Origin: a virus
Virus record (IMG/VR): IMGVR_UViG_3300045922_000709
Span: 1-64,000 of that record
DNA: 64,000 nucleotides
Reading direction: 5' to 3' (one strand)
This document shows, piece by piece, positions 1 through 43,600 of the stretch (its first letter is position 1; each line of letters starts with the position of its first letter). The notes beneath the pieces were generated by a model, which was not told where the DNA came from, ran no database searches, and was given only the letters and a program-made list of their open reading frames with translations. Position numbers and translations under genes: made by a program.

Positions 1-2
1 GT

Positions 3-44
3 GACAAAGAAGCAGGCATTGTCTGCTTCGAGTATACTCGATAA
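3..44 (+). CDS. 3' end of a small ORF truncated by the window edge (..DKEAGIVCFEYTR*)
   Basis: Open frame ending in TAA at 42-44 and followed by the same pseudoknot motif that follows other early genes. Confidence 0.3.
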   Translation, partial: DKEAGIVCFEYTR

Positions 45-65
45 GCGGAAGCGAGAAACCCCGAA

Positions 66-91
66 CGACCTCGACAAGTCGCAAAACTGTC
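66..91 (+). ncRNA. Small H-type pseudoknot motif A, copy 1
   Basis: CGAC-CT-CGACA-A-GTCG-CAAAAC-TGTC; S1 = CGAC/GTCG, S2 = GACA/TGTC. Confidence 0.6.
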
Positions 92-100
92 CACTTGATT

Positions 101-127
101 ACCTTGCCGGTAGGGTGGTTAAACCGG
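101..127 (+). ncRNA. Small H-type pseudoknot motif B, copy 1
   Basis: ACCTT-G-CCGGT-AGGGT-GGTTAA-ACCGG; S1 = ACCTT/AGGGT, S2 = CCGGT/ACCGG. Confidence 0.45.
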
Positions 128-143
128 AAAATATATAACTTAA

Positions 144-168
144 ACCTTGCGGTGAACAGGTCAACCGC
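144..168 (+). ncRNA. Small H-type pseudoknot motif B, copy 2
   Basis: ACCT-T-GCGGT-GAAC-AGGT-CA-ACCGC; S1 = ACCT/AGGT, S2 = GCGGT/ACCGC; ends 8 nt before ATG 177. Confidence 0.5.
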
Positions 169-176
169 TATATATT

Positions 177-377
177 ATGATTCAGAAATATTCTTCTGAG
201 CTCGATATCTCGAAAGATGTCGAGCTCTGCACAGGCGATGAAAAAGCAATCATCGCCTACTTACGTAAAATGGGGTATGAAAACCCCAGATTGATTTTCA
301 TTTGCGCCGAAATGGCGCATTTTGTCCACGGCCCGATACAGCTCGAGCCGTGCGACATTCCGGAAATCATATTTTAA
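177..377 (+). CDS. Hypothetical early protein (paralog of 487-690)
   Basis: DEKAIIAYLRKMGYENPRLI aligns with DEKLVKFLINLGYKEPKII. Confidence 0.75.
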   Translation: MIQKYSSELDISKDVELCTGDEKAIIAYLRKMGYENPRLIFICAEMAHFVHGPIQLEPCDIPEIIF

Positions 378-383
378 TTGCTT

Positions 384-410
384 CGACCTGAGCATGTCGT
401 TAAACTGCTC
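384..410 (+). ncRNA. Small H-type pseudoknot motif A, copy 2
   Basis: CGAC-CT-GAGCA-T-GTCG-TTAAAC-TGCTC; 6 nt after stop codon. Confidence 0.65.
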
Positions 411-486
411 ATTTTACAAAAACAAGTTACTGTCGAACGCGAAAGCGTTTATAAACCTTTTCTGTTAATGGTCAAACAGAACGCTA

Positions 487-690
487 ATGTTATTCAAAGA
501 ATATGTTAGCTCAATCAGTGTTTTAGGCACTGATTTTGAAAATATCGACGATGAAAAACTAGTCAAATTTTTGATAAATTTGGGTTATAAAGAACCTAAA
601 ATTATCAAAAAAGCCAAAAAAACCGTGAAATTTGAACACGGTAGGTTAATGATACCAGGAATGGTAATCAATAAACCTGAAAAACTGTAA
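487..690 (+). CDS. Hypothetical early protein (paralog of 177-377)
   Basis: ORF track; similarity to 177-377. Confidence 0.75.
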   Translation: MLFKEYVSSISVLGTDFENIDDEKLVKFLINLGYKEPKIIKKAKKTVKFEHGRLMIPGMVINKPEKL

Positions 691-717
691 TGTCGAACGC
701 TTTTTAATTTTTTAAAA

Positions 718-1536
718 ATGATTGTCAACGAAACCATCAACAGCATGCTCACTGAAGAAGAGTATGTTTATTCTCCTGTACTCCGAGAGTACATCGAGAT
801 ATTGTCTGTCGAAGACGAGCACGGCGCGCACGTAGCTCGTGACCAGTTTGGAATGTTCCATGTCGATTCTAAGTACAATCCGCTGTATGTTCAGCGGTTT
901 GACAAAGTCGGCTGCTTTAATTCGACTGCAACAACTGTAGCCGAATTAAATGGAGAGCAATTCCATATTAATTTTCAAGGCGAAGCCCTTTATAGCAAAC
1001 GATTTTGGTTTGCCGAACCATTTGAGTTTGGCGTTGCAATTGTTATTCAAGATGGTAAATACTTCTTGATTAACATGGACGCGGAGCGTGTGTCAATCGA
1101 TTTTGAAAAAATCGATAAATTCAACTCGATTGGAATTGCTGTTGCCCAATACGATGGTAAACAATTTCACATCGACACAAACGGAAATCCAATTTATGAT
1201 TTTCGTTTTGACAAAGTTGATCGTTTCAACGAAAGTGGAACGGCTGTTGCAACGTTAAATGGAAAACAATTCCATATAAACTTTTTTGGTAAAGCAATTT
1301 ACCAAGAAAGGTTCGACAAAGCTCGTCCATTTGTCAATGGATTTGCAGTTGTTGATGTAAATGGAGAAAGATTCCATATCGACTTTTCGGGTAAAGCAAT
1401 TTACTCGAAAAAATTCGATTATGTGTCAGATTTCAACCCATCAAACTCAAAATTCCCATTTTTTAACGCTTATGCGAAAAAAAATGAGGAATGTTTCTTC
1501 ATTAACCCACAAGGTGAAGAGTTTGACATTTGTTAA
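718..1536 (+). CDS. WG-repeat (WG_beta_rep/KWG-like) protein, type A
   Basis: About six ~37-aa repeats: FHIxxxGxxIYxxRFDxVxxFxxGxAVV. Confidence 0.85.
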   Translation: MIVNETINSMLTEEEYVYSPVLREYIEILSVEDEHGAHVARDQFGMFHVDSKYNPLYVQRFDKVGCFNSTATTVAELNGEQFHINFQGEALYSKRFWFAEPFEFGVAIVIQDGKYFLINMDAERVSIDFEKIDKFNSIGIAVAQYDGKQFHIDTNGNPIYDFRFDKVDRFNESGTAVATLNGKQFHINFFGKAIYQERFDKARPFVNGFAVVDVNGERFHIDFSGKAIYSKKFDYVSDFNPSNSKFPFFNAYAKKNEECFFINPQGEEFDIC

Positions 1537-1541
1537 ATAAT

Positions 1542-1568
1542 CGACCTAGGCACGTCGTTAAAAGGCCC
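1542..1568 (+). ncRNA. Small H-type pseudoknot motif A, copy 3
   Basis: CGAC-CT-AGGCA-C-GTCG-TTAAAA-GGCCC; 5 nt after stop 1536 and 7 nt before ATG 1576. Confidence 0.55.
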
Positions 1569-1575
1569 AATTTTT

Positions 1576-1746
1576 ATGGAAGAGGAAATTATCGATAAAC
1601 TTTTGCTTAATATTAAGCTTAATTCAAAATTGACTAAACTTCTTACACCACAAGAAGTTTACGAATTTGAAAAAATGCTTAAAAGCAAAACGCTGACTTT
1701 CCAAAATTCAATTTTGGAAAAGTTTATTGTCGAACGCGAAAATTAA
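1576..1746 (+). CDS. Hypothetical protein, 56 aa (MEEEIIDKLL...FIVEREN), absent from ORF track
   Basis: Translated by hand; fills the intergenic gap. Confidence 0.65.
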   Translation: MEEEIIDKLLLNIKLNSKLTKLLTPQEVYEFEKMLKSKTLTFQNSILEKFIVEREN

Positions 1747-1780
1747 TTTTAACTTTTAACTTTTAACTTTTAACTTTTAA
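1747..1780. repeat. Tandem TTTTAAC heptamer, about 4.5 copies
   Basis: Seen directly upstream of ATG 1783. Confidence 0.7.
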
Positions 1781-1782
1781 TT

Positions 1783-1956
1783 ATGTCGGATAAAGTGATT
1801 GAAGGTTTTGAAAAATCTTTAGCAGCTTTGGATAGGTTTAAAACAATTGTACCTGTTAATCTGCAAAAAGAAATTCAAATGAAGGTTGTGCAAAAAGCTT
1901 TCGACTTAAAAATAAATCTTTTGTCAAGATATATTGAAAGTCGAGAAAAAAATTAA
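1783..1956 (+). CDS. Hypothetical protein, 57 aa (MSDKVIEGFE...YIESREKN), absent from ORF track
   Basis: Translated by hand; T-rich leader. Confidence 0.65.
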   Translation: MSDKVIEGFEKSLAALDRFKTIVPVNLQKEIQMKVVQKAFDLKINLLSRYIESREKN

Positions 1957-2011
1957 TTTTTCTTTTTCTTTTCTTTTTTCTTTTCTTTTTTCATTTTTCA
2001 TTTTTAAAACC

Positions 2012-2191
2012 ATGTATTGTAATAATAAAACGCATGAACAACAGTTCATTGATATTTGTCAAAAGCTCGAAACTCTTTTTAATTTTGAAGAGCTTGACGA
2101 AATAATGAACGAAGTCGACGTTAAATATTTCAATTTCTTTATTGAAGAACTCACTAAAGAAACGGAACCTTATAAATTACACGAAAACTAA
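2012..2191 (+). CDS. Hypothetical acidic protein (start moved to ATG 2012)
   Basis: The track's 5' extension overlaps the upstream ORF and runs through a pyrimidine-rich spacer. Confidence 0.6.
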   Translation: MYCNNKTHEQQFIDICQKLETLFNFEELDEIMNEVDVKYFNFFIEELTKETEPYKLHEN

Positions 2192-2202
2192 ACCAACCTT
2201 AA

Positions 2203-2268
2203 GCCGAAACAAGAGATTTTATCTCTTGTCTATTCAGAGTAGTGTCTGAATACTGACGATGGCAGCTA
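2203..2268 (+). ncRNA. Type II hammerhead ribozyme; predicted cleavage after GUC (C2230)
   Basis: GCC-GAAA-[CAAGAGAT ttt ATCTCTTG]-TC-[TATTCAGA gtagtg TCTGAATA]-CTGACGA-T-GGC: full core (GAAA, GUC, CUGANGA) with perfect stems III and I. Confidence 0.9.
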
Positions 2269-2290
2269 AATGATTTGGAATAATAGTTAG

Positions 2291-2318
2291 TGGGGTGGCT
2301 TATAGCCACCTCATTTTT
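2291..2318 (+). terminator. Intrinsic terminator
   Basis: TGGGGTGGCT-TAT-AGCCACCTCA followed by a T-run. Confidence 0.75.
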
Positions 2319-2388
2319 ATTTTTCAACTTAATTTATTTTTATATTTTTTTCTAAAATTTAAAATTTTAACGTTATTTTGAATAATTT

Positions 2389-2652
2389 ATGAAAAAATAC
2401 ATGAAAAGGTCTCAATTTCTAAAAGAATTATCGGATTGGGGTCATGTAATTCAAGTTTCTGTTTTATTTGAAGACAAAAATAATGTCGAACGCGAAAAAA
2501 TAATATGGTGTGATGGTTGGGGTTATTTTCGTAAAGATATTATTGCTGGCCCTACTATTCCAATTAGAGTATGGAGATTAGCTAAAACCTACGGATATAA
2601 AATTTGTATTAAAAGTTCTTATTTAAATAGAAACGAAATTTATTACATTTAA
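2389..2652 (+). CDS. Hypothetical protein
   Basis: ORF track; AT-rich leader. Confidence 0.65.
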   Translation: MKKYMKRSQFLKELSDWGHVIQVSVLFEDKNNVEREKIIWCDGWGYFRKDIIAGPTIPIRVWRLAKTYGYKICIKSSYLNRNEIYYI

Positions 2653-2662
2653 TTGTTTTTTT

Positions 2663-2872
2663 ATGAAAAAGAAAAACTTTTTGAAACGTTTGTCTAAAAA
2701 CAAATATTCAAAATATCCAACAGCTTTGCAATTTACTGTCGATTGCTGTTCATATTTGAATATTAAAGACATTGAAATGAAAAAAGCAATTTACACCGAA
2801 TGTGTAAAGCAACAAAAAAACTATGAAAAAGTATATTGTGATTTGGATAATTATTATTCGGACATGGTATGA
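2663..2872 (+). CDS. Hypothetical protein
   Basis: ORF track; ATGA overlap with next gene. Confidence 0.65.
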   Translation: MKKKNFLKRLSKNKYSKYPTALQFTVDCCSYLNIKDIEMKKAIYTECVKQQKNYEKVYCDLDNYYSDMV

Positions 2873-3165
2873 GTGGTATTAAAGTAGGTTCAAAAGTCGT
2901 TTGTATAAACGACAAAATAACTAATCCTTTAGTGTATGTGGACTTTAAACATTGGATTGTCGAAGGCAAAACATACACAGTTAGAGCTATTTGCAATTCT
3001 GTTTATGGTTCTAAAGGTGTTTTACTTGAAGAAATTGTAAACCCTGACATCTATGTTTCCATTTTACATGGATATATAGAGCCTGCATTTTTAATTAGTA
3101 GATTTGCACCAATTGAACCTGAAAAAGAACTTGAAACAGAAGTTCTTGAAAAAGTTTTAGTTTAA
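2869..3165 (+). CDS. Hypothetical protein, possibly SH3-like beta-barrel
   Basis: IKVGSKVVCIND...GKTYTV...GVLLEEI...SRF pattern. Confidence 0.7.
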   Translation: MSGIKVGSKVVCINDKITNPLVYVDFKHWIVEGKTYTVRAICNSVYGSKGVLLEEIVNPDIYVSILHGYIEPAFLISRFAPIEPEKELETEVLEKVLV

Positions 3166-3197
3166 TTTTTTTTTTTTTGTAAACTTTTTTCTTTAAT

Positions 3198-3416
3198 ATG
3201 GAAAGTTCCCTTCTTTTCTCTTTTGTTCCGCATGAAGCACTTTTTGCTTCTGCAAATAAAATAAAAGCTACCATAATTCAGGGTAGATTTTATTTAAGAA
3301 ACGAAAATCCTGTCGAAGGCTATTGTTTGAATGTTGAAAAACCTTTTGAAGAAAGGCTTTATTTTGAAACATACGACAATGCCAAAAAATATTTATCGTA
3401 CATGCTTGAGCAATAA
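3198..3416 (+). CDS. Hypothetical protein, tandem paralog 1
   Basis: Highly similar to 3477-3695 over 72 aa. Confidence 0.8.
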   Translation: MESSLLFSFVPHEALFASANKIKATIIQGRFYLRNENPVEGYCLNVEKPFEERLYFETYDNAKKYLSYMLEQ

Positions 3417-3476
3417 AATCAAAAAAATTGCTCTTAAATTTTGTTTTTTCTTTTACAACTCTTAATTTTGCTAAAA

Positions 3477-3695
3477 ATGGAAAGCAACCTTCTTTTGTCT
3501 TTTGCTCCGCACAAAGTTGTTTTTGGTTGTGCAAAAAAAGTAGAGGCTACCATATTTGAAGGTAGAATCTATATAAAAAACCAAAATCCTACAGAAGGCT
3601 ATTGTTTAAGTGTGCATAAGCCTTTTAGAGAAAAACTCTATTTTAACACTTACAAAAGTGCCAAAAAACACTTAGAACAAATGCTTGAGCAATAA
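3477..3695 (+). CDS. Hypothetical protein, tandem paralog 2 (start moved to ATG 3477)
   Basis: MESNLLLSFAPH vs MESSLLFSFVPH; both end MLEQ*. Confidence 0.8.
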   Translation: MESNLLLSFAPHKVVFGCAKKVEATIFEGRIYIKNQNPTEGYCLSVHKPFREKLYFNTYKSAKKHLEQMLEQ

Positions 3696-3749
3696 AATTA
3701 AAATTACAGCAGTGGCCACCCTTTTATCCCACGTAAGACTGTAATTTTC

Positions 3750-3834
3750 GCTTTGGTGGTGGAATGGTAGACACGACAGACTTAAAATCTGTTTCTCTGT
3801 AAAGAGAGTGCGGGTTCGACTCCCGCCCAAAGTA
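3750..3834 (+). tRNA. tRNA-Leu (anticodon TAA)
   Basis: Acceptor GCTTTGG/CCAAAGT, anticodon arm ACAGA-CTTAAAA-TCTGT, long variable arm, T arm GCGGG-TTCGACT-CCCGC; CCA not encoded. Confidence 0.92.
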
Positions 3835-3837
3835 CTT

Positions 3838-4027
3838 AATTTAAAATTAGTTATCGTCCTTGAAAAGAGCTGAGTAATCAGCCCTTTTGTTTCTAATTTT
3901 GTCAAAATTTAAAATTACGATGGCGATTGGAAAGGGTCGAGTAATCGGCCCTTTTGTTTTTCGTCTTCTCAAAATTTAAAATTAGTTAGCGTCCTTGGAG
4001 AGGGTCGAGCAATCGACCTTTTTTTTT
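3838..4027 (+). terminator. Three tandem ~65-70 bp units, each ending in a GNRA-capped terminator-like hairpin
   Basis: AAGAGCTGA-GTAA-TCAGCCCTTTT; AAGGGTCGA-GTAA-TCGGCCCTTTT; GAGGGTCGA-GCAA-TCGACCTTTTT; each unit starts AATTTAAAATTA. Confidence 0.7.
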
Positions 4028-4036
4028 AAGGTTTAT

Positions 4037-4110
4037 TGAAGAATAGCTCAATTGGATAGAGCATCGGTCTTCTAAACCGACGGTTATGGGTTCGAGTCCC
4101 ATTTCTTCAA
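4037..4110 (+). tRNA. tRNA-Arg (anticodon TCT)
   Basis: Acceptor TGAAGAA/TTCTTCA, anticodon arm TCGGT-CTTCTAA-ACCGA, T arm ATGGG-TTCGAGT-CCCAT. Confidence 0.92.
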
Positions 4111-4132
4111 CTTTTAATTTAACTTTATTTTT

Positions 4133-4711
4133 ATGAGAAATTATTTAGAACGCTTATTTTCAAATACAATTTCTTATTTAATCTTGTTTGCTATGTTTAT
4201 TGTAAATAACCTATTAAAAAATTTAGTTTTGTTTTTTATATCGATTATTATTTTATTGAAAGTTTTTTCAATAAAAAAAACAATAAATGATATAGAAAAT
4301 AAAATTAAAAAAGACACAGTGTACGTCCGAACGCCAGAATATTCTTATGTGAGTTTTGAATACATAGAATATGAAGGAATTAAACAGGGTTTACCCGATA
4401 GTGTAGCTAATTTATTAGCCAGAATAGCTGTACAAGAATCAGGCTATGCGCTTAATTCAAATGTTGCTAAAAAATATAATAATTATTTTGGAGCGCATTT
4501 AAATAAAATTTGCAATGATAATCCTAATAAATTGTGTTTTGCAAAATATGATAATTGTAAAGAAGCAATTAAAGCGTGGGTTAAATTTTATGATTCTGAT
4601 CCTATTTGCGGAAATGAAACTTTAAAAGAATGGTTAATTAGAAGGCGATATAATTTAACACCAGGTTATTATGAAAAACTTAAAAAAGTTTATGTAAAAC
4701 CGTTAAATTAA
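4133..4711 (+). CDS. Membrane-anchored glucosaminidase (GH73-like) peptidoglycan hydrolase
   Basis: Hydrophobic N-terminus; AVQESGY, NNYFG and FAKY motifs. Confidence 0.75.
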   Translation: MRNYLERLFSNTISYLILFAMFIVNNLLKNLVLFFISIIILLKVFSIKKTINDIENKIKKDTVYVRTPEYSYVSFEYIEYEGIKQGLPDSVANLLARIAVQESGYALNSNVAKKYNNYFGAHLNKICNDNPNKLCFAKYDNCKEAIKAWVKFYDSDPICGNETLKEWLIRRRYNLTPGYYEKLKKVYVKPLN

Positions 4712-4825
4712 ACTTTTGCATGAATCGCTATTTTTATGTTTCATCTAAATGCGAAAAAGTTAAATCTACCAATAAACATTTAAAGTTATTTAATTATTTA
4801 TTTAATTGTTTAATTTAAATTATTT

Positions 4826-5413
4826 ATGATTGCTTTTGTAGATCATTCAAAAGATACCTATTCTAAAATCAAAAAACTGTTAGAAGAAACAGATGAAGAT
4901 TTTATTTGTTTAGGTAATTATCGCATGGAAAATGTTTTAAAATATATAAATTTATGTAAAAAATATAAAGACAGGCTTATTTTGTTGTCGAGAGAATATT
5001 ATAATTTTTTAGAAATTAGGCCTTATAAAAACAGTAAAATGTTGTGTAAACAATATTTTAAACGTTGTTATTTTGACCAAAAAACAAATATTTTATTTAC
5101 AGAAAGCATTATTTTTAGAAGAAGACTTAAAGTTGTATGTAAACATAGTCCTTATTTTTTAAGCTTAAATAATCATCAGCAAGAAAATATATTAGATTTT
5201 AATATAGAATCTGATGGTCAAATTATAGCTAATGTTATAAATGATTCGGAATTTGATTTTAATGAATTAAACAATAGTTTTTTAGACTATCGAAATGAAG
5301 AATACTTTCAAAAAAAAGGTATTCAAGTTTCTAAGTACAGTTATTGCGATGTAACATTCGATTATTCTTCCGATTGCAGTTTGGTTTTAGTTTCAAAATC
5401 TAAACACTTTTAA
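4826..5413 (+). CDS. Hypothetical protein; possibly a degenerate calcineurin-like phosphoesterase
   Basis: FVDH / CLGNY / LLSREY fall at the spacing of DxH / GDxxD / GNH[DE] but metal ligands are lost. Confidence 0.5.
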   Translation: MIAFVDHSKDTYSKIKKLLEETDEDFICLGNYRMENVLKYINLCKKYKDRLILLSREYYNFLEIRPYKNSKMLCKQYFKRCYFDQKTNILFTESIIFRRRLKVVCKHSPYFLSLNNHQQENILDFNIESDGQIIANVINDSEFDFNELNNSFLDYRNEEYFQKKGIQVSKYSYCDVTFDYSSDCSLVLVSKSKHF

Positions 5414-5452
5414 TTTTTCACTTTTAATTTTTTCATTTTTAATTTTTTTCTT

Positions 5453-6004
5453 ATGTCTGGTTTTAATTTCTCGAATCTGGGTTCTTCTGCACCAAGAATG
5501 GACATGAACCCTTTGCAAATTCAGTTCAAAAATGGTTCTGAATTTATCCGTTTTCAATTTTTGTCTCCTGACAATAAATTGATAAATTTTATTCGTCCAA
5601 TGAGCTTCATTAGCTCTTTGAGATTAAGCGCACCTGATTCCATGCAACATCTAAGCGATTTGGATTTTATCCATGCGTTTAATGATAATTGGAATAGCTA
5701 CAAAGAAGTGAGAAATGCTTTTAAAGAAATCATGTCTTACTTCAAAGTTTGTACCTATGTTAATACAAAAGGTCAACCTACTGAAAAATGGATTGCTGAA
5801 TTTAATTCAACAATTCAAGAAATGGGAGAATCTTTTTGGACAAGTTATTTGCCTGAAAGATTTGAAAAAGAAATCAAAAGCTTAGGTGTTTCTTTTAAAA
5901 TCATCGAAGTTTTTGAACCAATTATGAATACTGTCGAAAGCACAATTGAAAAACAAATCGTTATTTCACATAACGCTTTTGATTCTAATGAAAAAGATGC
6001 TTAA
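5453..6004 (+). CDS. Hypothetical protein
   Basis: ORF track. Confidence 0.8.
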   Translation: MSGFNFSNLGSSAPRMDMNPLQIQFKNGSEFIRFQFLSPDNKLINFIRPMSFISSLRLSAPDSMQHLSDLDFIHAFNDNWNSYKEVRNAFKEIMSYFKVCTYVNTKGQPTEKWIAEFNSTIQEMGESFWTSYLPERFEKEIKSLGVSFKIIEVFEPIMNTVESTIEKQIVISHNAFDSNEKDA

Positions 6005-6230
6005 AAAATTGCGCAATGATTATAACTCCGTCGGATTATTCGACGGAGTTATAAATGTTGATGGAAAAGAGTTGATTTTTAGAATGAAAGCTCAAAATGA
6101 AGAGTCTGCTAAAAATAAACTCATTAGTATTTACAAAAACACGGTTGAGCAAAACGCAAATTCTATAATTAAAATAGATTTGCGTCGAATTAAAAAACTT
6201 GACAAGAAATTTATCAAGTTTTGTGTTTAA
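5997..6230 (+). CDS. Hypothetical protein (start probably ATG 5997 or 5988)
   Basis: ORF track; short overlap with upstream stop. Confidence 0.6.
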   Translation: MLKKLRNDYNSVGLFDGVINVDGKELIFRMKAQNEESAKNKLISIYKNTVEQNANSIIKIDLRRIKKLDKKFIKFCV

Positions 6231-6293
6231 ATGAACAAACAAACAAACAAACTTTTTATTTTTCTTTTGTTTTAAACTTTAATTTTACATAAA

Positions 6294-6899
6294 ATGTCTT
6301 TTGTTTTTGTTAAAACCAACGATGAAAAAATTAATATTGACGAATCGTTGGTTAAAGATTTCAGTATTGCTTTAGGTGTTGTAAGTCAATACAGAGTCGA
6401 AGGTTCTTATCCTAAAAACATCGGTGGAAGTCCTCAGCTTCTTGTTAAATTTCCTGTAAACTTTGAGTCTCTTCAAGAAATGATACTGTATTATATTCAA
6501 GTAATTGAATCTAATACTTTAAGATTAAAGAAAAGACTTGCAAAATATCGTTCTGAATTTAAAAAAGAGAACGAAAACATTAAACCTTTTAAGTCAAGAA
6601 CTACAATTCTTGACGAATTTAACAACACAAAAGATGTTTTGATTAAAAATAATCAAAACATCAACTTAAAAAACGAAACAGAATATTCGTTGTGGTTGCA
6701 CAATTCAATTTTAACTGAAAATGCTTCAGAAAACGAAAATTTTGTGAAAAATAATTTAGGGTTTCACATAAACACAAACATTGGTTTTTCTTTTATGATT
6801 AACAAAGAACATTACAATGTTTTTTCAGTTAGTAAGCAAACAATAAACGGTAAATCTGTTTATTATTTGTACGAAAAAACTCTTTTCAAAAAACTTTAA
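6294..6899 (+). CDS. Hypothetical protein
   Basis: ORF track. Confidence 0.75.
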   Translation: MSFVFVKTNDEKINIDESLVKDFSIALGVVSQYRVEGSYPKNIGGSPQLLVKFPVNFESLQEMILYYIQVIESNTLRLKKRLAKYRSEFKKENENIKPFKSRTTILDEFNNTKDVLIKNNQNINLKNETEYSLWLHNSILTENASENENFVKNNLGFHINTNIGFSFMINKEHYNVFSVSKQTINGKSVYYLYEKTLFKKL

Positions 6900-6926
6900 C
6901 GTTTCAAACTTTTTATTTTTTGTTTT

Positions 6927-7262
6927 ATGGTAAACAAAAGTTATTTTAAAACAAATTCAGAGTTGCCGAAATCTGAAGAAAAAGCTCAAAATTCAAATTG
7001 GGCAAACACTTTTGGTTTTGAAAAAGCTCTTGAATTGTTAAAAGAAGGGTCTAAAGTCACTCGTTTAGGTTGGGAAAACATAAGTCATATACAACTTATG
7101 CAAATGATAACCGACGACGAGTTTAAAACTACTAAACTCGAAATAGTTTCGAGAAACCTTAATTCTTCTATGTTTCATACATATTTCGTTTCTAACGTAG
7201 ATATATTGGCAACAGATTGGATTGAGGGAACTCGCACAAAATACGAGCAGTATGTTAGTTAA
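6927..7262 (+). CDS. DUF2829 / Tad2-like anti-defence nucleotide sponge
   Basis: FGFEKALELLKEGSKVTRLGW and SNVDILATDW match the family's N- and C-terminal signatures. Confidence 0.8.
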   Translation: MVNKSYFKTNSELPKSEEKAQNSNWANTFGFEKALELLKEGSKVTRLGWENISHIQLMQMITDDEFKTTKLEIVSRNLNSSMFHTYFVSNVDILATDWIEGTRTKYEQYVS

Positions 7263-7267
7263 TTAAC

Positions 7268-7292
7268 AAAAGGGGGAGAAATCCCCCTTTTT
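7268..7292 (+). terminator. Intrinsic terminator
   Basis: AAAGGGGGA-GAAA-TCCCCCTTTTT. Confidence 0.8.
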
Positions 7293-7307
7293 AACTTTAT
7301 TTTTTTA

Positions 7308-7769
7308 ATGGAACCTGTCGAACGCGATAATAAAATTAAAAATGATTTATATATTTCAAAAAAAGCAAAAATGTATTTAATAGAAAATGTAAATTTTGAG
7401 ATAACAATTGATGAAGAGTATTTTAGAAAAAGAGACATTTGGCTCAACGAAATCATAAAAAATTTACATAAAAATAAAGAATTATTTACATTGTCTAAAT
7501 TTTTCAACTGCATTTTTGTCGAACGCGATTGTGTTTGCAATTCAAAAATAATTCATCGTTTAAATTATTTTCATAAAGTTATCGATTTCAATTTATGTTT
7601 TGAAATATATGATACATCAATAATTTTAAAAGTAAATAACTTAATTATATTTGAAAATGAAGTTTATAATTTTAAAAATTTTAGACTTTTTTATAAAAAC
7701 TTTTTAAATTTTTTAAAACAGGATTTGTCGAACGCATATCTTTCAGATTTAAATTCTGATTTAAATTAA
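7308..7769 (+). CDS. Hypothetical protein (contains 3 TGTCGAACGC copies)
   Basis: ORF track. Confidence 0.6.
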   Translation: MEPVERDNKIKNDLYISKKAKMYLIENVNFEITIDEEYFRKRDIWLNEIIKNLHKNKELFTLSKFFNCIFVERDCVCNSKIIHRLNYFHKVIDFNLCFEIYDTSIILKVNNLIIFENEVYNFKNFRLFYKNFLNFLKQDLSNAYLSDLNSDLN

Positions 7770-7809
7770 TTTATTTTTTTAAAATTTATAATTTTAATTT
7801 ATTTAATTT

Positions 7810-8298
7810 ATGGTAACAGCATTAATAGGTATGACAGGTGCAGGTAAAACCTCTCTTATGGAAAAGCTTATAAAAGACGGATATAGAAATTTACCTATTT
7901 ATACAACAAGATATCGTAGAGAAAACGAAGGTTATTTAGAATATGAATTTTGTCAAAAAGAATTTTTTGAAGAAATGATTAAAAACAAATTTTTTGCAAA
8001 TTATCAAATATATAAAAATAATTATTATGGTTTTCCTAATTATTATCTAACTTATGGAGAATATAATAATAAAGTTAATCACGTTATGATTGTAAATCAT
8101 GAATTTGTAAAAGAACTAAAATTAAATAAAAGACCTAATTTTGATGTAGTTTTTTTAGATTGCCCTGAATATATAGCACGAGAAAGATTAGTTAAAAGAG
8201 GCGATGATGAAGCAGAAATTAATCGTAGATTAGCGATAGAATCAGATTTGTTTCGCAACTTTAATGATTATAATACTAAAATTGAAATTGTTATTTGA
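7810..8298 (+). CDS. gmk: Guanylate kinase-like NMP kinase
   Basis: GMTGAGKT P-loop, YTTRxxRxxE, YxNNYYG, RLxxRGD. Confidence 0.85.
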   Translation: MVTALIGMTGAGKTSLMEKLIKDGYRNLPIYTTRYRRENEGYLEYEFCQKEFFEEMIKNKFFANYQIYKNNYYGFPNYYLTYGEYNNKVNHVMIVNHEFVKELKLNKRPNFDVVFLDCPEYIARERLVKRGDDEAEINRRLAIESDLFRNFNDYNTKIEIVI

Positions 8299-8479
8299 TT
8301 TATAAAAAATCTTTAAATTATAGTATATTTAAACACTATTAAATAATTTTTAAATTATAATCAATTATTAAAAAATATATTAAATCGTTTTTAAAACTTA
8401 AAATAGAAACATATCATTGTGTATATTTAACTGTTAATGTTGTATTAAAAAAAATCACAACGCAATTTTAATTTAATCA

Positions 8480-11168: not shown

Positions 11169-11615
11169 ATGAAAAGTCAATATGATAAAATTTATCCTTT
11201 TTCAAACGAAATAGCTATTGTTGAATTAAATAACAAATATAATTACATAAATAAAGATATGAATCTTATATCTAAACAATGGTTTGATAAAGCTTACAAT
11301 TTTGATAAAAATTATGGAATTGTATTTTTAAATAATAAATTTAATTTAATAAATAAGCAAGGTGAATTATTTACAGATTCTTGGTTTGATAAAATAGCTA
11401 AATTTAATAATTTAGTAGATATAAAAGATAAAGAACTATTTATGAATATCAAAGGAGAATATATTTTATCTAATTGGGTAAATGCTATACTTGCTTTTTG
11501 TCAAAATTTATATGTAGTTGAAAAAGATAACAAATATAATTTCATAAATGAAAAATCTGATTTTATATTAAAAGAATGGATAGATGGTTCATTTAGTTTT
11601 GAAGAATTTAAGTAA
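11169..11615 (+). CDS. WG-repeat protein, type B
   Basis: KYNxINKxxxLxSxxWFD repeats. Confidence 0.85.
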   Translation: MKSQYDKIYPFSNEIAIVELNNKYNYINKDMNLISKQWFDKAYNFDKNYGIVFLNNKFNLINKQGELFTDSWFDKIAKFNNLVDIKDKELFMNIKGEYILSNWVNAILAFCQNLYVVEKDNKYNFINEKSDFILKEWIDGSFSFEEFK

Positions 11616-11651
11616 AATTAAAATAAATTTTTAATTTTTAATTTTTAATTT

Positions 11652-13721: not shown

Positions 13722-13724
13722 GTT

Positions 13725-14837: not shown

Positions 14838-14867
14838 TTTTGTAAAATTTTAATTTATTTTAATTTT

Positions 14868-19564: not shown

Positions 19565-19567
19565 TTT

Positions 19568-19741
19568 ATGAAATCTTATATAAATATATCTGATTTTGAA
19601 GATTTTGATGATGATTTTTTAGAAAAACATAAACAAAAAATAGAAATTTTGTTAAAAAAAGCAAACGAAAATATAGCAGAATATATTGTTGAAATTTTCA
19701 ATATTATAAATTCTGAAATTAACAATTATGAAAATGATTAA
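19568..19741 (+). CDS. Small acidic hypothetical protein, 57 aa, absent from ORF track
   Basis: MKSYINISDFEDFDDDF...NYEND*; fills the gap. Confidence 0.6.
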   Translation: MKSYINISDFEDFDDDFLEKHKQKIEILLKKANENIAEYIVEIFNIINSEINNYEND

Positions 19742-19753
19742 TTTATTTTATTT

Positions 19754-20023
19754 ATGTTAGTTTATTATTTTGAGTCTGATCCATTAGATATACTTTATTA
19801 TTTAAAAGATAAAGAATGTATTACAGAAGATGAATTTGAAAATTTAATATACGATGAAAAAACAATAGATATGATTCAAGATAAAACAAGAGAGTTATAT
19901 CAAAATATAGATAATTTTATGGGAAATAAAATAACAAATTCAGAAAACGAGCTTTTGGAAAAAATTAAGAAAAGATACAAAGAAATTGTAGCTGAAAATT
20001 TTAATCAATTTAATTATGAATAA
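19754..20023 (+). CDS. Small acidic hypothetical protein
   Basis: ORF track. Confidence 0.7.
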   Translation: MLVYYFESDPLDILYYLKDKECITEDEFENLIYDEKTIDMIQDKTRELYQNIDNFMGNKITNSENELLEKIKKRYKEIVAENFNQFNYE

Positions 20024-20462: not shown

Positions 20463-20463
20463 A

Positions 20464-21198: not shown

Positions 21199-21203
21199 TA
21201 TTT

Positions 21204-30597: not shown

Positions 30598-30626
30598 AAA
30601 AAAAGGGGCTTCGGCCCCTTTTTTTT
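30598..30626. terminator. Bidirectional intrinsic terminator between the convergent arms
   Basis: A-run-GGGGC-TTCG-GCCCC-T-run. Confidence 0.92.
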
Positions 30627-34656: not shown

Positions 34657-37600
34657 TTAACAAATGTTAATACCTAAAGCTTTTAATCTGGCAATGCCTG
34701 TTAAATCTACTTGATTACTAGTCTTAATGTTATCTGCAAGAAAAGTAGAATTAAATTCTTCAACAAACAACTGTGCTAAATTTATATCATTAGTTTTATT
34801 AAAAATAAATCTTTTTAACACATCACTTATTTCCTTAATTATTCTATGGAAATAAGTTTCATCTTTGGTTATATTGACATCGTTCATAAGACTTCTAAAA
34901 GAATTATATCTAAAAAATGCAGCTGTAAATTCAGCAACACCTACTTCCGGACTTTTAGCAAAAGATTGGGCTAAATAATCCAACACATGCTGCTGTTCTT
35001 GTGTAATTCTTAAACCTTTTTTCTTTCTTTCTTCCAAATCTTTAATTAAAAAGTTATAAATGCTTTGGAATTTTTGAACTGTAGCCTTGTTATTAACTAT
35101 ATTATCTATTGTAACAGCATGAAAAACTTCTTCAAATAAAATATCATTAAATATTTCAGCACTTATATTCCCTTTAACTGTTATCGTATTACTATTTCTA
35201 TCAAAAAATCCAGGAGAACTATTAGGTAAAGTGTCATCAATTACAAGATTTATAGATCTTAAATCAATGCCTGCAAATTTTGCTAACTCTAATATTAAAT
35301 TTTTCTTATAAGACGGCAGTTTGTCTAAATAATCAATTATATTAGGATTAGCTATTTCTTTAGTTTTTTCAACTTCTTTTATTAAAGTTAAAGTAGGCGT
35401 TTTAGATTCAAATATCTCTTTAAATTTATCTACAAAAGTTTTAAAAAATGGAGAGTTAAAATCTAAAAAATCAGAATAACTTTTATTTTTTATATATACT
35501 AAATAATCAGAAGGAATGTAAGGAAATAAAGTTTTATTTCCAAAACTTGTAGCATTTGTCATTAATGTGCTTTTTATCAAAAGTATAGCAAATTGATTAT
35601 CTAACACATCGTTAGACATTAATAAACTATACCAATCATTAACTATTTGATTTTTATCAGGTTTTACCAAATTATTTATACCATAATAGCCTTCGTCATA
35701 AAGTTCTAAACTAATTAAAAGTTTATTATTAGGGTGTCTTTTTCTAACGTAAGGTAATAGTTCGTTTAATTTATCAGTTATAATCTTTAAATTTTTAAAT
35801 TCGCCAACAACCGCTTCTGAATAAACATATCCATTTAATACATTAAAGAAATATACTAACGACTTTTTAAAAGAACCTAAAGATTTAAATGCAGATTCTA
35901 AGTTACTTAACAAATTATCTCGATATAAAGGTATTATATTTCTTAAAACCTTAGATGGTAAATTTAATACAATATCGTTCATTACTTCATATATAGTTTT
36001 ATTATCATTTGTATTATCTATTAAATACTCAATGTTTCCAAAAGGACTTTGACCAGCTTTACTTAAATTTCTTATTTTAGCTAAATCTTGTTTTTGTCTT
36101 ATGTTGTCTATTACAAATGCTCCTGCTTTTTTAGCTTGAGGTCTTATAACACTTTGAGTACCTCGATAAGCATCTGCAAGTTTAACTATAGCTGCAAAAT
36201 TTGCTAAATCTAATTTATATTTAGTTCCAATAACTTTTCCTTCAGCATTTAATATATTTTCTTCTTTAATTATAGCGTTAGTATTAGGTATTACATTTTC
36301 AGTTTGCATCATTTCTTCAACAGCCATATTCATGTCTTGAAGTTTTTCATATTTTTCAATATATCTATTTATTAAAGCTTGATTATCTGTAAATGTAGAA
36401 ACAATGTCTTTTTCTGAAAAACCAAGAGCTGCTAATAAATTACAAATATATTGAGTTGCATCTTTAATTAAAAGAGTGTTTAGTTTAGGGTCTTTAATAT
36501 TATCAAGCGCAAGGTTTTGGAGTTGAGACAAAACGTCAATTCTTTTAGATGTTCCGTCAATTGTTTTTTCACCAAAAAATTCTGCAAATAATAAATTTTG
36601 ACCATTTGCTTTTTTAATTACAACATGGTGTTTAGGTTTAAGATATACTTTTGCTTCTTGAAATTTAACAAAGCCTGTTACACCTAATGAAAACGCACCC
36701 ACCGCTGTTTTACCAGCTTTAGCATCTTCATAAAGTCCCATTTGATAATCAAGACCAGCTGGGTCAAGAGATGCCGGTTTAGCTTTATCTAATTCAGTTG
36801 CTAATTCTGCAAATTTACCACCCCCAATTGCATAAAACATTTCATGATATCTATTTGGATCTTTTATCAATTTTAATTTAGTTCTTATAAGTCTATTAGA
36901 TAAAGAATTATTTTTAGAAGGGTCTACTTTATAATAATAATGTTTATCAATATCGAAGTCAGCTCCCATCGATACCAAGACAGTTGGGTCACAAATAATC
37001 ATGTTACCCATTATAGGTGATAAATAACCTACTATAGTTTGAGGTCTTGCTGACTGAAGTCCTGATGTAGGCAATCTAAACCCTAATATTTCTTTAGGTA
37101 AAAACTTATTATATTTTTCAGGATTTTCTAAATATTTTTCAAAACCTTTTATTTTTGCAGAATTATCTGAACTTGGTTTAAAGCGTTTAGTTTTTTCATC
37201 ATATGCGTAATCCCAAGGTATAATTGTCTCATTTACACCTAATTGTTTTTTATTTTTATCAAACATATATATTCCGTTTTTATTTTGTAAATCATCTATT
37301 CTATCTAAATAATCATCAGACAACAAAACAGCAGCGTTACCTGGTAATTTTAAATCAATTGTTTTTGAAAATAAAGCTAAAATTTTAGATTCAAAAATTT
37401 TCCAAGAATTAGATTCAAATAAACTTTGACCTAATTCAAGTTCTCTTAAAGCGTTTATATCATTTAAATCTTTCTTTAAAATATCTCTTAATTTTTTATC
37501 TAAATTTTCAATAAGCTGATTAAAATCTTCAGAATCTTCAGCTAAATTTTCTATGTTTTCTACACCTAATTCTTTTTTTAGCACAGCTTCATTTTTTAAA

Positions 37601-40600
37601 ACTATTTCTTTAATTAAATTAAAATATTGTTCTTTTTTAGATTTAAGTTTTTCATTATTAAAGTTTTGTAAAATAAGAATCATTAGCTGTGTACCAGCTG
37701 TAATTTTAGTTTTACTGTTTTGTGAAATCTCTAATTGATTAAAAAAATACTGTCTTTGTAAAACATCTACATTTTCAGCAACTATTTTTTCAGCAGATTT
37801 TTTAATAAAATTATCAATAGATATTTTTTTATCTAAAGTGGCTTTTTTACCACTACTCATGACAACCCTTACGGACTTAACTTCTTGAAAAGATTTATAT
37901 AAAAATTCAGCATTAGGTTTTCCGTTTTTGCCAATTTCTCCATTAGCGTATTCTAATACAAGATCTAATAAAGATTTATCAGAAGACACTTGTATTTGAT
38001 TAATTTCAATTTCGCTTATTTTATCTAATAAAGGCGATTTACCAAAAATATAAGATAAAGGATAAGCAGACGTTTTAACATAATGAAATTTTGAATCAGA
38101 GCTTGAATAACCAGCATACACCGGTTTATAAGCTTGAAAAACAAAATTTACATTATTTAATAATTTTTGAGCTATTTCTTTTTTACCATGCTTAAATAAT
38201 ATATCAGCACATATAATGTCTAAAAATTCGGTTTTAGATATTTTACCTTCTGCTAAATATATTTTAGCAAATTCAAGTAAACTAACATATTCTTGAGCGT
38301 CTGCTTTTGCTATTTTAGAATATGCTTTAATATTGTCTTTTCTACCCTCTGCTTCTAATCTTTCTTTTACAGTTTCTTTTCCACCTTCGTCTGTGCTATC
38401 TTTTGGAATTTCAATAGGATTTTTATCTAAATCAAATCTTTCATCTATTGGTTCTTCAAGAACAATAGAATAAAATTCAGGATTTTCATAATTACCAATA
38501 GTACCGGGTGCCACTAAAGCAGCATTTCTTTTATTAACTTCTTTCCAAACATTTTCAACAGACTTTAAAAAATCATTTATTTTATTAGTGTCAAATTCGC
38601 TTGTAAATAAAGTAAATAAATTGTCAAATTTTAACTTATTATGAAAAGTTGCAGGGTCTGAAGTAAGCTGTCTAAACTTAGTGTGAAGATATATAAATTT
38701 TCTATTAGTTACATCAGTGTAACCAATGGATTTAAAAATAGCATCAAAATCAGCAGGATTTATCCCGGTTTTTTGAAAATTAACAGTTCCATTTTCAAAA
38801 GTTATCGAACCATCTCTAATTTTCCCCAACAAGGGTGTTGCTTTCTTATATTCTTCTGAAACGTTTGTAGAAACAACACCATTATTTATAGACGGTAATA
38901 ATAATTTACCATTTGCATCAACTCTAACTATATTTAAAATAGGCATCATATAAAAGATTCTTTCTGAATCTTTTAATGTAAAATCAGAGATTCTGGCTAT
39001 TTCTGGCCCAACAATTTCATTCAAAAATGTTTCATAATATTTTTGAGAGTTCATTTTTCTATTAAATTCGTTCACCTCTTCTGCTTTTAATTTTAAAATA
39101 GGTGCCGAAGGTTTATCTGATAAAGCAGGAGGTAAAAAATAAACCTCTTGTCTTGAATCTAATAATCGTCTTGTTAAATCTCTTCTTTGCTCTTTACTTA
39201 ATTCTGTAAATTTATAAACTCGACCGTCAATAGATATAGATGATAAATTTCTATTATCTATATCAAATATACCTAAACTTTCTACAACAGGTGCTCTAAA
39301 TGGATTTTTTAATAATTCTTCTACAAAACTATTAAATGAATTTTTTAATTTAGAAAATATTTCAGATATAAATGTTTTTCTTGAAATATTTTGATATTGT
39401 TTTTGATGTATCCTAGTTGATTGATTTAAAGGAAATAATCCTAATTTAGAAGCTTCATTTAATAACTCAAAATAATTTGGATCTTTAAGTAAAGCTAAAT
39501 CAGTTAAGCTTAAACTAGGATTTTTAACTCTAAAATTACTTAATTTAACTTCAAAACTTAATAATAAATTATTAAGATTTATATTTTTTTCTGCAAGCTT
39601 TCTTTGCAATACTTCAAATTGGTCATCTGTTAAAACAACACCAAATATATTTCTTATATTTAATTTTTGTCCATTTTTAGTAGCTCTTACAAAAGCATTA
39701 ATAAAAGCATTTCTATAATTAATAAAAGTATTATATTTGTTTTCATCATTAAAATATAAAGTGTTTTCTTCTTTAATTGAAACACTACAATGAAATACTT
39801 TTGAATGACTAAATATTTTAATTAAATCATTAGTATAAACATTGTCTTTGTCTTTTTCTACAAAGTATTTAAGAGCAGCTGCCTCAACACTACCATATTG
39901 ACTAACTAAATCTTCAAGCTGAATTAATAATTCATCTTTAGTTTTAGGGCTATTTAAATGAGTTGCTAAATAAACTAAAGCATTTTTATCATCTAAAAAT
40001 AGCTCTAATCCATTTTCTGAAAGAACACCTGTAGTTGCATAATATCGACCATCTTCATATTCAATATTAAAAACAGGTAATCTTTTAAATAAATTTCTTG
40101 TTCTTTTGCTTAAAGATTCAATAAAATCTTTTACAAAATTAACATCTTCTCCAAAAACTTCAGAAGGTTTGGAGTTTTCTCCATCGACCACATCTATTTC
40201 TAATTCTTCTGATTTTTCTTCTTGTGTTTCTGTAGTCAATCCTTCTAATGTTTCTATTTCTTCTAAAGCTTTTTGATCTTCTTTTGCTTGTTCTAAAGCT
40301 TTTAATTTATTTTTAAATAATTCATTATCTTTAATTATATTTAACTGAGCTTGTTTTGCAATAGCTTTTAGATTGTTTTCTTCAAGAATTGCTTTAAGTT
40401 TTATAATATCTAATTCATCAATTTCATCTCTTTCTTCTAATTCTTCTAATTCTCTTAATTTATTTTCGATATTTGTTTTTACATATTCAATAGGATTTTT
40501 TATATTTTTATCTACTGCTAAAATTAAAAATGAAGCAAAAAAATTAGAAGCTTGTTTAAATAGTTCATAATCCAATATATTTGCGTTATCTAAAGAATAA

Positions 40601-43600
40601 CCAATGGTATATTCTTTAAATCCTTGTTCAATAAAATTTTCAAGTTCGGGTGTTATAGGTTGTTCTTGAAAATTACTTATAATGGGTGCAGAACCTAAAG
40701 CAGAAGAATTATCTATAACCGCTTTTCCTTTTCCTTTTCTTTTTCTTTTTTGTTTAATTTCTGGTTCATTTTCATTTTCGTTTTCATTTTCGTTTTGATT
40801 TTCATTTTCGTTTTGATTTTCGTTTTGATTTTCGTTTTGATTTTCGTTTTGATTTTGATTTTGATTTTGATTTTGATTTTCTTGTATCAATTGATCTATT
40901 TTATTTTTAATAAAATTTTCTATTTCAACAATATCTTTTTTATTATTAATATCTTTAGATGCAACTAAAGAAATAGATTCAATTGAGTTTTCTTTTTCAA
41001 TATAAATATTTTTATTATCCCGTAAAGTATATTTATATCCGTTGTAATTATTTTCAATTAAAATATTACTTGATAAATTATTAGTATTGTTGTTAGCAGT
41101 TGTATTAACAGCTACATTAGCGGTATTATTATTATTAGTAGATGTATTATTAGTATTATCATCTAATTCTTCAGATTCATTATATTTAGATTCTGGGTCA
41201 AATTCTTCTAATAATCTTAATGAAATATCGGGATTAAATTTAGATAAAGTGATTAATTTTTTTTGATCCCCTAATGTTTCAATTAAAGAATATGTTAATT
41301 TACTAGAATAAGCACCTGCAATTTCCAAATATTCTTTTAAATTTTTAGCATTTTCTTGATTATATGTATTTCCTTTTTGTAAAACTTGTTGAAAATTAGT
41401 TTCATTTAAGTTAAAATATATAGAATTATTAAGAGATGTAAATAAAGCAGCGACTAATAATTTTTTTGTTTCGTTGTTTGAATTTTCTTCAGGATAATTT
41501 TCTTTAACATATTCATCTATAAAACCCCTAAGACCTTCTGCTTCTTCAAAAGTTTTTTCAGCATATTCTACTATTAAAATATATTTTTCTCCATCTTTAA
41601 TCGATACATTGTTTAAAAAATATTGTAAATGATTTAAAGAATCATCTTTATTTTTAAATTTAAAAATTGAACCTAATGATTCTTTTAAATCTTCATAAGT
41701 AAATACATTGTTTTCATTATCAACTTTAATTGTTAGTTTTCCATCTTCCCATTTTGTTTTAAAATTAAATTTTTTATCGCTATTTATAAGTTTATCTACA
41801 AATTTTATAAAAGGAGATTCTAAATTATTTAAAGGATTATATAATAAAGAATTAAATATATCGTTATTTTGAGCATAAAAATATAATATGTCATAAATTG
41901 GTTTACCATCTTTACTTTCACTTACTTTAATAGGTACTAAAACACCTCTTTTATTATGTGAATATTTTATAATTTGATCTATTAAAGAACCTTGATATCC
42001 TAATTTTTCTAAATATTCTACTGTTAATTTAGTATTTGGCGTAACAGAAATAGCCAAATTAAAAAGAATGTTGGTTCCACTAATTTTAATATTTTTAAGT
42101 TGTTCAATATTCTGATTTTTTTCTATAAAATTCAAACCTAAACTATATGCCGCATCATATCTAAAATCAAAAATAATTCTAGGTTTACCGTTATCAAATT
42201 TAATTGAAAATTTACCTCTGTTTTCTCTAAGTTTAATTATTTTTTCTATTTCGTTTTTGTCTAAACTAATACCTAAAGTTGCCAAAAGATTCAAACTATT
42301 TTTTACAATTTTTGAATACTCTTCGCTAAAATTAGGATTATTTAATGTTTTAACTATAGTTCTTAAATCTTCAAGTTGACCTTCATCTAAAGCTACATTA
42401 AATGCTGCAATATCTCTGCTATCTTCTACTAAATAACCAGAGTTTTTCTTAGTTAAAGCAACTTTAAGTTTATCTCCTGGTTTTAATCCTTTGTTTTTAA
42501 GATGTTTTAATAAAATTTCAGAATTAATTTTATCTTGTTGAATAGTTCTTTCTTGATTTTCATTTTCGCCAGGTAATGGTAAATGACCTATTTTTACACC
42601 TTCTTCATCTACAAAAAATAAATAATCTTTTCCTTTTTCATTTACATATGTTAAATAACAAATAATTTGACCATTACTATGTAGTCTCAATACTTTTAAT
42701 AAATTATTCATTTTTTTAAATAAATAATTTCCACTTTTTAGTAAAGCTTTATTTAAAGAAACATTATTTATAACTTGATTTTCGTTTGTAGAAACAACTA
42801 TTTTAACACCTTGTGCTTCTTCAACATCAGATGGAATTGGCTCTAAATGCAATAAATCTTTGGGTTTGTTAGGATCTTTACTTTTATTAGCATCTAAATT
42901 TTCAGAAGCTTCTACGACAGGAACATAAGCGCGAGCATATTTTTCACCAAATTCATTAAAAAATAAATCAAGTGCTGTTTCTTCAGCTAATTCAGATAAT
43001 GATTTTTTTAATTTTTTAGATTTTTTAGATTTATTTTTAGGTTTTGATTCGCTGTTTTCATTAAATTCATTATTTTCATTATTTTCATTAGATTCATTAT
43101 TTTGATTGTTTTGATTGTTTTGATTAGACTCTTCAGAATCATCTACAGTTTCTTCATTTTCTGATTGCTGTTCTTCATTTATGTTTTCAGCTTTTTTGTT
43201 TTTTCTTTTATTTCTTTTTCTATTTTTTTTGTTTTCTTCTACCGCATCATTAACTTGTTCTTTAGAATTTTTTAATTTTTCTTTTAACTCGTTTATTTGA
43301 GCTTCTAATTCATCGATTTCTTCTGCTAAATTATTTAATTGATTTGATTGATCATTATAATTAGGGTTGTTTGTTGAACCAGCATCTAATAAAATATTTA
43401 ATTCGTCATGCTTTATTTGTTTTTGCTTTTTTAATTTTTCTAAATCATTTATTTGTTGTTGAATAGATATTGGTTCTTGAGCTTTTTCAACAATTTCTTC
43501 ATTAGATTCAGCTTTATCTATATCTTCTTCTTTAATTCCATTTTTATTTAAAACCTCATCTGCTTGTTCTTTTTTAGATTTGTTAAATTTATCTTTGTAT

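Follow-up and report, generated by a model that had tools for sequence, protein, structure and literature searches.

The first 8 kb of the virus record IMGVR_UViG_3300045922_000709 (IMG/VR) carry a ten-nucleotide word, TGTCGAACGC, that recurs on a single strand among the small early genes of a crAss-like phage, and the question raised by this locus is what the word does there. The window, by which the whole stretch of DNA analysed is meant, comprises the first 64 kb (64,000 nucleotides, nt) of this single-contig record of 80,476 bp. The reading preferred here, to which a probability of about 0.45 is given, is that TGTCGAACGC is a phage-specific early promoter read by an injected virion polymerase; that it is a promoter of any kind is considered somewhat probable. 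A promoter is favoured because the box is sharp, asymmetric and self-sufficient, appears in the early arm on the sense strand only, is linked with start codons, follows terminators and is unlike host-type promoters. From these properties we infer the promoter function, the position of the transcription start and the polymerase that would read the motif.

Exact copies start at 431, 691, 1728, 2484, 7316, 7517 and 7726, all seven on the + strand, and on both strands of the 80,476-bp record the word was found only within 431-7735. In shuffled sequence 0.01 copies are expected against the seven seen, none of 100 shuffles yielding seven, and TGTCGAACGC is one of the two most over-represented 10-mers of the genome, the other being a coding repeat at 11-16 kb. 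Copies with one mismatch are present at 2958 and 3311 (TGTCGAAGGC) and at 5932 (TGTCGAAAGC), all on the + strand of the same region and all altered at position 8, which they indicate to be tolerant of change; a local model of the + strand of positions 1-8300 predicts 0.11 of them, and at least three occurred in none of 1500 simulations. Copies with two mismatches are present in near chance number, and the motif family is therefore sharply defined. Its consensus is TGTCGAA[C/G/A]GC, and the ten positions hold about 18.8 bits of information, which is about the amount needed for specifying a site in 2 x 80 kb. The base on the 3' side of TGTCGAACGC is usually G or A; among the seven exact copies it is G five times, and five of the seven extend to TGTCGAACGCGA. 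From -25 to +40 around the copies no other conserved position and no second box were detected. The original prediction had listed the same seven copies and three variants and had described a strand-specific signal confined to the early region; all the positions were reproduced, and the remainder of the contig adds no copy on either strand. The count on both strands against a Markov background, which it had named as a check, gave seven copies, on one strand and in the early arm only, against 0.005 expected for the 80,476-bp contig under an order-3 model.

The members of the family, M1 to M7 being the exact copies, are given below with the open reading frames (ORFs) that contain or follow them; distances marked + are counted from the first base of the motif.

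431..440, + strand: M1 (TGTCGAACGCGA), intergenic, 16 nt past a pseudoknot-like element with a T-run (384-415); ATG 487 at +56.
691..700, + strand: M2, non-coding, abutting the stop codon of ORF 487-690; ATG 718 at +27 and an in-frame ATG 745 at +54.
1728..1737, + strand: M3, in the final codons of ORF 1576-1746; ATG 1783 at +55.
2484..2493, + strand: M4, within ORF 2389-2652, read as VERE; next gene start at 2663, +179 nt.
2958..2967, + strand: variant TGTCGAAGGC, within ORF 2869-3165, read as VEG.
3311..3320, + strand: variant TGTCGAAGGC, within ORF 3198-3416, read as VEG.
5932..5941, + strand: variant TGTCGAAAGC, toward the end of ORF 5453-6004; ATG 5988 at +56.
7316..7325, + strand: M5, the first of three tandem copies, 25 nt past the terminator at 7268-7291; ATG 7371 at +55.
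7517..7526, + strand: M6, within ORF 7308/7371-7769, 201 nt past M5.
7726..7735, + strand: M7, 209 nt past M6 and 84 nt before ATG 7810.

The variant at 3311 is the weakest member of the family, because the paralogous ORF 3477-3695 has T in place of V at this site and lacks the motif.

The copies at 1728, 2484, 7316 and 7517 read V-E-R-E/D in their ORFs and that at 7726 reads L-S-N-A in another frame, and these readings had already been noticed in the original prediction. They raise the possibility that the motif is a repeated peptide (VER-E/D), or the remnant of a recent duplication, and has no signal function; the position of seven of the eight in-ORF members in the V-E-x frame speaks for this. 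The V-E-R-E/D copies, however, are without exception spelled with GTC and CGC, codons that each account for 4.4% of their family in the genome, whereas the three VER tripeptides found elsewhere in the genome are encoded by other codons. The use of rare codons at the motif therefore indicates selection on nucleotides, as had been proposed from the start. Furthermore, the sequences flanking the copies have no mutual similarity, M1 is intergenic, M2 is non-coding and M7 lies in another frame. Given the codon analysis, the repeated peptide is close to refuted.

An ATG of an ORF of at least 50 amino acids (aa) lies at +54 to +56 of four of the seven exact copies (431, 691, 1728 and 7316) and of the variant at 5932, although at 691 the +54 ATG (745) is internal and the first ATG (718) lies at +27. 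This property is shared by 1.55% of the positions of the region, and at least four of seven gives P = 2e-6, a value to be discounted about hundredfold since the +54 to +56 interval was picked after the data had been viewed, and still small after that discount. The copies at 431, 691, 1728, 5932, 7316 and 7726 stand at the head of putative early transcription units on the coding strand, those at 2484 and 7517 do not, and the units are delimited by the following terminators.

2289..2315, + strand: terminator 3' of a hammerhead ribozyme, closing the unit with M1-M3.
3930..3955, + strand: strong intrinsic terminator.
4000..4021, + strand: strong intrinsic terminator.
7268..7291, + strand: strong intrinsic terminator, also given as 7270-7289, closing the unit that precedes M5.
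30601..30622, + strand: terminator at the end of the + strand arm, bounding the 23-kb unit headed by M5-M7.

No strong + strand terminator was found between 7268-7291 and 30601-30622. At the head of the 23-kb unit M5-M7 are the sole repeated signal, no other start signal being visible there, and ATG 7810 is the start of a guanylate-kinase-like gene, the first in this long + strand unit. The placement of the motif, with its spacing of 54-56 nt and its three copies after a terminator at the head of 23 kb of genes, fits a gene-expression signal.

Such a signal might act in the RNA, in which case UGUCGAACGC would be the place where early mRNAs are cleaved or processed, would govern their stability, or would bind a translational regulator or enhancer at a set distance before the start codon. 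The motif is strictly on the sense strand of early genes, a constant distance of 54-56 nt to the ATGs is a trait of translation or leader signals more than of promoters, and the region contains other RNA elements, namely the hammerhead II ribozyme at 2202-2271 and a pseudoknot-like element before two ATGs. On the other hand, the copies have no common secondary structure and the leaders show no conservation, M4 and M6 are distant from start codons, and three tandem copies after a terminator better fit a restart of transcription; an RNA signal would leave the 23-kb unit without a visible start. Taking both sides together, we regard an RNA-level function as unlikely.

For a promoter, the obvious comparison is with the host types. 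The patterns TTTG / TAnnTTTG of Bacteroidota and TTGACA / TATAAT are not enriched in the genome, and the motif is unlike TTTG / TAnnTTTG. It does not have the two boxes of a sigma-70-type promoter either, being a single GC-rich box (rich in G and C) without a conserved partner. Readings as an extracytoplasmic function (ECF) sigma -35 element (GAAC) and as a box like that of MotA were tried and rejected, no conserved downstream partner being present. A good host-type promoter, TTGACA-N16-TAACTTTG, was found at about 79,285, some 50 nt before the first rightward gene (79370-79702).

A related explanation retains the host enzyme: the box would, as DNA, bind a transcription factor of phage or host origin by which the host RNA polymerase is redirected, after the manner of the MotA box at T4 middle promoters, or else a repressor of early genes. 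The box is short, exact and asymmetric and stands before early genes, its distance to the ATGs would, given a short leader, put it at about -30 to -40 relative to the start site, and the host-type promoter lies further upstream on the same arm. Against this, no conserved -10 or -7 partner occurs at a set downstream distance, the early ORFs, mostly orphans, include no recognisable DNA-binding protein or sigma factor, and the product of an early gene could not drive the very first transcription. A factor site is accordingly judged quite unlikely.

The phage encodes a candidate of its own for the reading enzyme.

34657..45999, - strand: candidate virion RNA polymerase with a DFDID motif, the proposed reader of the box.

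This giant ORF encodes 3,780 aa and has GADFDIDK at residue 3014. In the databases it matched nothing but giant genes of Crassvirales genomes, and it aligns with the giant protein of the Crassvirales genome cr118_1 across LGxRxPTxGL and GxDFDIDK with a pairwise E-value of 1e-13; no PHROGs family was assigned to it, and a sequence search of the PDB with its DFDID region gave no meaningful match. Terminase, portal and major capsid genes of the crAss type were located at 70-77 kb of the record. The terminase is about 30% identical to those of known Crassvirales, and the best identity among 5.8 billion proteins was 46%; the phage is thus a crAss-like one of very divergent sequence, with no close relative in the public data searched. 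The description of the virus as crAss-like with a giant polymerase at 34657-45999, given in the original prediction, thus agrees with the DFDID motif and the cr118_1 alignment. The giant protein is assumed to be present in the virion and injected with the DNA.

The genes of the record are arranged in two arms, a rightward one that begins at about 79.3 kb and passes position 1 to reach 30.6 kb, and a leftward one from 77.9 to 30.6 kb. The first 8 kb contain small orphan genes, two tRNAs, a hammerhead II ribozyme and a Tad2-like anti-defence gene, and small genes of unknown function together with anti-defence genes are typical of early arms. Genes for ThyX, a primase-like protein, a nuclease, a helicase and ribonucleotide reductase follow at 16-30 kb. 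The sequencing runs containing this stretch are only DNA runs of a hot-spring or microbial-mat sample, which is probably its source; no RNA run was among them.

According to the mechanism proposed here, TGTCGAACGC, usually followed by G or A, would be the promoter core, located in the rightward early arm on its coding (non-template) strand, and transcription would probably start at or just past the 3' end of this core, where the purine run GAAA or GATA lies. M1-M3 would drive the first small early genes, and the tandem copies M5-M7 after the terminator would drive the 23-kb unit of nucleotide-metabolism and replication genes as far as the terminator at 30.6 kb. The reader would most likely be the crAss-type two-barrel RNA polymerase (DFDID), carried in the virion and injected with the DNA. 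The original prediction of a virion polymerase promoter is upheld in its strand-specific nucleotide signal, to which the ATG spacing and the terminator placement are now added, and the assignment of the reader stays conjectural. It is a tentative proposal, possible rather than probable, that an injected two-barrel polymerase of the crAss type has as its whole promoter a box of 10-12 nt, specified by its bases and containing neither a hairpin nor a second element.

Promoters of an injected polymerase take another form in coliphage N4. Its early promoters P1-P3 are DNA hairpins, with a stem of 5-7 bp and a 3-nt loop, which are read by an injected T7-like single-subunit virion polymerase. The present phage likewise has several same-strand elements at the head of its early genes, but no common hairpin, and its giant protein is of the DFDID two-barrel type. 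Folding of the seven copies gave hairpins of 6-7 bp with 4-nt loops for those at 431 and 7517 only, and neither the copies nor the leaders from motif to ATG revealed a common structure, the leaders being also without common sequence. The hairpin noted earlier at the 431 copy, GAACGC-GAAA-GCGUUU, is real and local to that copy; the suggestion of an N4-style hairpin promoter finds no support, no hairpin being common to the seven copies. As to the enzyme, the giant protein aligns with the Crassvirales two-barrel polymerase rather than being T7-like, no search having been aimed at T7-like polymerases.

A precedent is offered by Thermus phage P23-45, whose two-barrel virion polymerase (gp96) has been proposed to initiate at an AT-rich motif that is strongly conserved and stands upstream of 14 mapped transcript starts, on the evidence of the mapped starts and of ChIP-seq (chromatin immunoprecipitation with sequencing) (10.1101/2022.12.01.518664). 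The promoter reading draws on this precedent because there, too, a phage-specific conserved motif repeated many times upstream of early transcripts was ascribed to a virion two-barrel polymerase, one related to the crAss type (10.1101/2022.12.01.518664). The two cases differ in that the P23-45 motif is AT-rich, was derived from mapped starts and ChIP-seq and is kept in related phages, whereas the present box is GC-rich, 10-12 nt long, known from sequence alone and found in no relative. In the literature, including a 2023 review and the crAss001 study, no description of a promoter of a crAss-like virion polymerase was found.

Repeated promoter units are also said to occur in T4-type phages. The PeSL cassettes of Arbiol et al. 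2010 reportedly consist of host sigma-70 promoters and stem-loops among small early genes, where the flanking homology mediates gene shuffling. They resemble the present locus in that repeated units alternate with hairpins; the copies of the present motif have no common flanking sequence, and their box is unlike a sigma-70 promoter.

The box might also be a DNA signal outside transcription, such as a strand-specific nick site, a pause in ejection or translocation, a Chi-like protection site or a replication iteron. Clustering of one-strand copies in about 10% of the genome would agree with this, as would the long AT-rich non-coding stretch and the tandem array just upstream, near which a genome end or an origin may lie. 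Yet such a signal predicts neither a constant distance to start codons nor a position after terminators, and spacings of 200-5000 bp are not iteron-like. In this respect the copies differ from iterons and packaging signals: they are distributed over 7.3 kb, lie 201 to 4832 bp apart and are linked with start codons. The ejection or translocation signal considered in the original prediction found no support of its own and leaves the start-codon spacing unexplained, and a non-transcription role is very unlikely.

The divergent region between the arms (about 77,960-78,640) has repeats of the CGAAGGGT type in tandem, a GC-rich and probably folded stretch and near-pure TATA-type sequence over about 400 bp; it could be a replication origin or be close to a genome end. 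Where the contig ends (80,300-80,476), at least four perfect 38-bp tandem units are preceded by a GGTGGTGG / CCACCACC hairpin and a terminator, and it is probably at this array that the assembly broke.

Relatives were sought in several ways. Viral and metagenome contigs collected with the terminase profile, most of them fragments and none above 46% terminase identity, do not contain the motif, and the two nearest long relative records have no equivalent exact word. Searches of viral contigs with the early protein 6294-6899 and with the terminase alone gave no relatives, and a scan of viral contigs for TGTCGAACGC-N185-215-TGTCGAACGC retrieved only unrelated contigs of 52-67% GC.

Comparable arrays of other words were nevertheless encountered in crAss-like genomes. 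In the crAss-like IMG/VR contig L062, with 32% terminase identity, TTCACTCACT is present in six exact and two variant copies at the head of the early arm, on the early-gene strand only; the copies (2228-4903; 18182-21364 of the IMG/VR record) end 12-14 nt before the ATGs of six consecutive small early genes. Flavobacterium phage FpV4 (KT876724.1) has four copies of CCCTCACTTATT, at the head of the early arm only; the four copies, given as TTCAAAACCCTCACTTATT at 3, 262, 83696 and 87794, lie only on the strand of the leftward early arm, and no word is more over-represented in that genome. Both arrays are like the present one in being exact, over-represented one-strand words at the head of an early arm. 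They differ in that the words are unrelated to TGTCGAACGC and that the word of L062 stands 12-14 nt before the ATG and that of FpV4 further upstream; these arrays, too, were read from genome sequences. One-strand early-arm arrays are a recurring feature of crAss-like genomes that is described in no paper found, and the present array is set apart among them by its short GC-rich box, its copy number, its constant leader length and its lack of a relative. Together, the differing boxes suggest a promoter word proper to each crAss-like lineage, which would change together with the polymerase.

Several observations weigh against a promoter read by the virion polymerase. The early transcripts of crAss-like phage phi14:2, the one model phage studied, are made by a virion polymerase (gp66) and have no detectable common upstream motif (10.1101/2020.03.07.982082); that phage has a polymerase of the same DFDID family and the same plan, with the early arm divergent from the structural arm, and differs in lacking a common early motif where the present genome has a very sharp one. 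The copies at 2484 and 7517 are in mid-ORF without a nearby start codon, and no exact copy heads the units that follow the terminators ending at 2315 and 4021. A constant distance to the ATG is unusual for promoters and fits a leader-RNA signal as well, and the frame bias of the in-ORF members (7/8 in V-E-x) is not predicted by a promoter model. Given TTGACA-N16-TAACTTTG, the host polymerase may also transcribe the rightward arm. Finally, the nearest relatives, at 40-46% terminase identity, are without the motif, and one contig (L104, 40% terminase identity), for which 5.5 kb of the early arm are available, contains no equivalent exact word, an absence of little weight at that distance.

The crAss-like phages are among the most abundant known viruses, and their infection is thought to begin with an injected RNA polymerase. 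If the early promoter is real, the box would represent the first minimal template for direct tests of an enzyme family whose way of recognising promoters is undescribed, and the constant leader of about 45 nt would reflect a coupling of initiation by the virion polymerase to the start of translation. The transcription map of the genome would then include two promoter clusters, the second of which would feed the 23-kb replication unit.

The early arm contains further elements. The pseudoknot-like element consists of four + strand copies of CGACCT-N6-GTCG-NNAAAN-N5 at 66-99, 384-417, 1542-1575 and 79771-79804, in which an invariant CGAC/GTCG is interleaved with a co-varying pair (GAGCA/TGCTC, GACA/TGTC, GGC/GCC), in the manner of a small H-type pseudoknot; two of the copies end 5-8 nt before an ATG (1576 and 79804), and no Rfam match was obtained. 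The hammerhead type II ribozyme at 2202-2271, which Rfam scores at 48.7 bits (gathering score 37), comes immediately 3' of ORF 2012-2191 and precedes the terminator at 2289-2315. Simple repeats make up the leaders of ORFs 1783-1956 and 2012-2191, namely (TTTTAAC)x5 at 1740-1782 and a TTTTC-rich run at 1957-2010, respectively. Between the genes for tRNA-Leu (3750-3835) and tRNA-Arg (4037-4111), three direct repeats of about 67 bp (3838-4027) each end in a terminator-like hairpin and a T-run. ORF 6927-7262 has a Tad2-like (Thoeris anti-defence 2) domain in Pfam (E = 7e-10) and is likely an anti-defence gene. Small early paralogues occur in two pairs, 177-377 / 487-690 and 3198-3416 / 3477-3695, the second being a 238-nt direct repeat of 76% identity.

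The composition of this part of the genome also differs. GATC is present in three copies in 1-8300, a density of 0.36 per kb compared with 1.63 per kb for the remainder of the genome, while TCGA is five times denser there (6.6 against 1.3 per kb), and the first 2 kb have a much higher GC content (36%). The complement GCGTTCGACA can be likened to a tRNA T-arm/T-loop, and GTCGAACG to a conserved segment of 16S, which we take to be coincidences. Downstream of the early region, AATGGTTTGAT occurs in 15 + strand copies at 11278-15570, within four tandem paralogous genes (11652-15860); it is a coding repeat of WG-repeat proteins, unlike the TGTCGAACGC signal.

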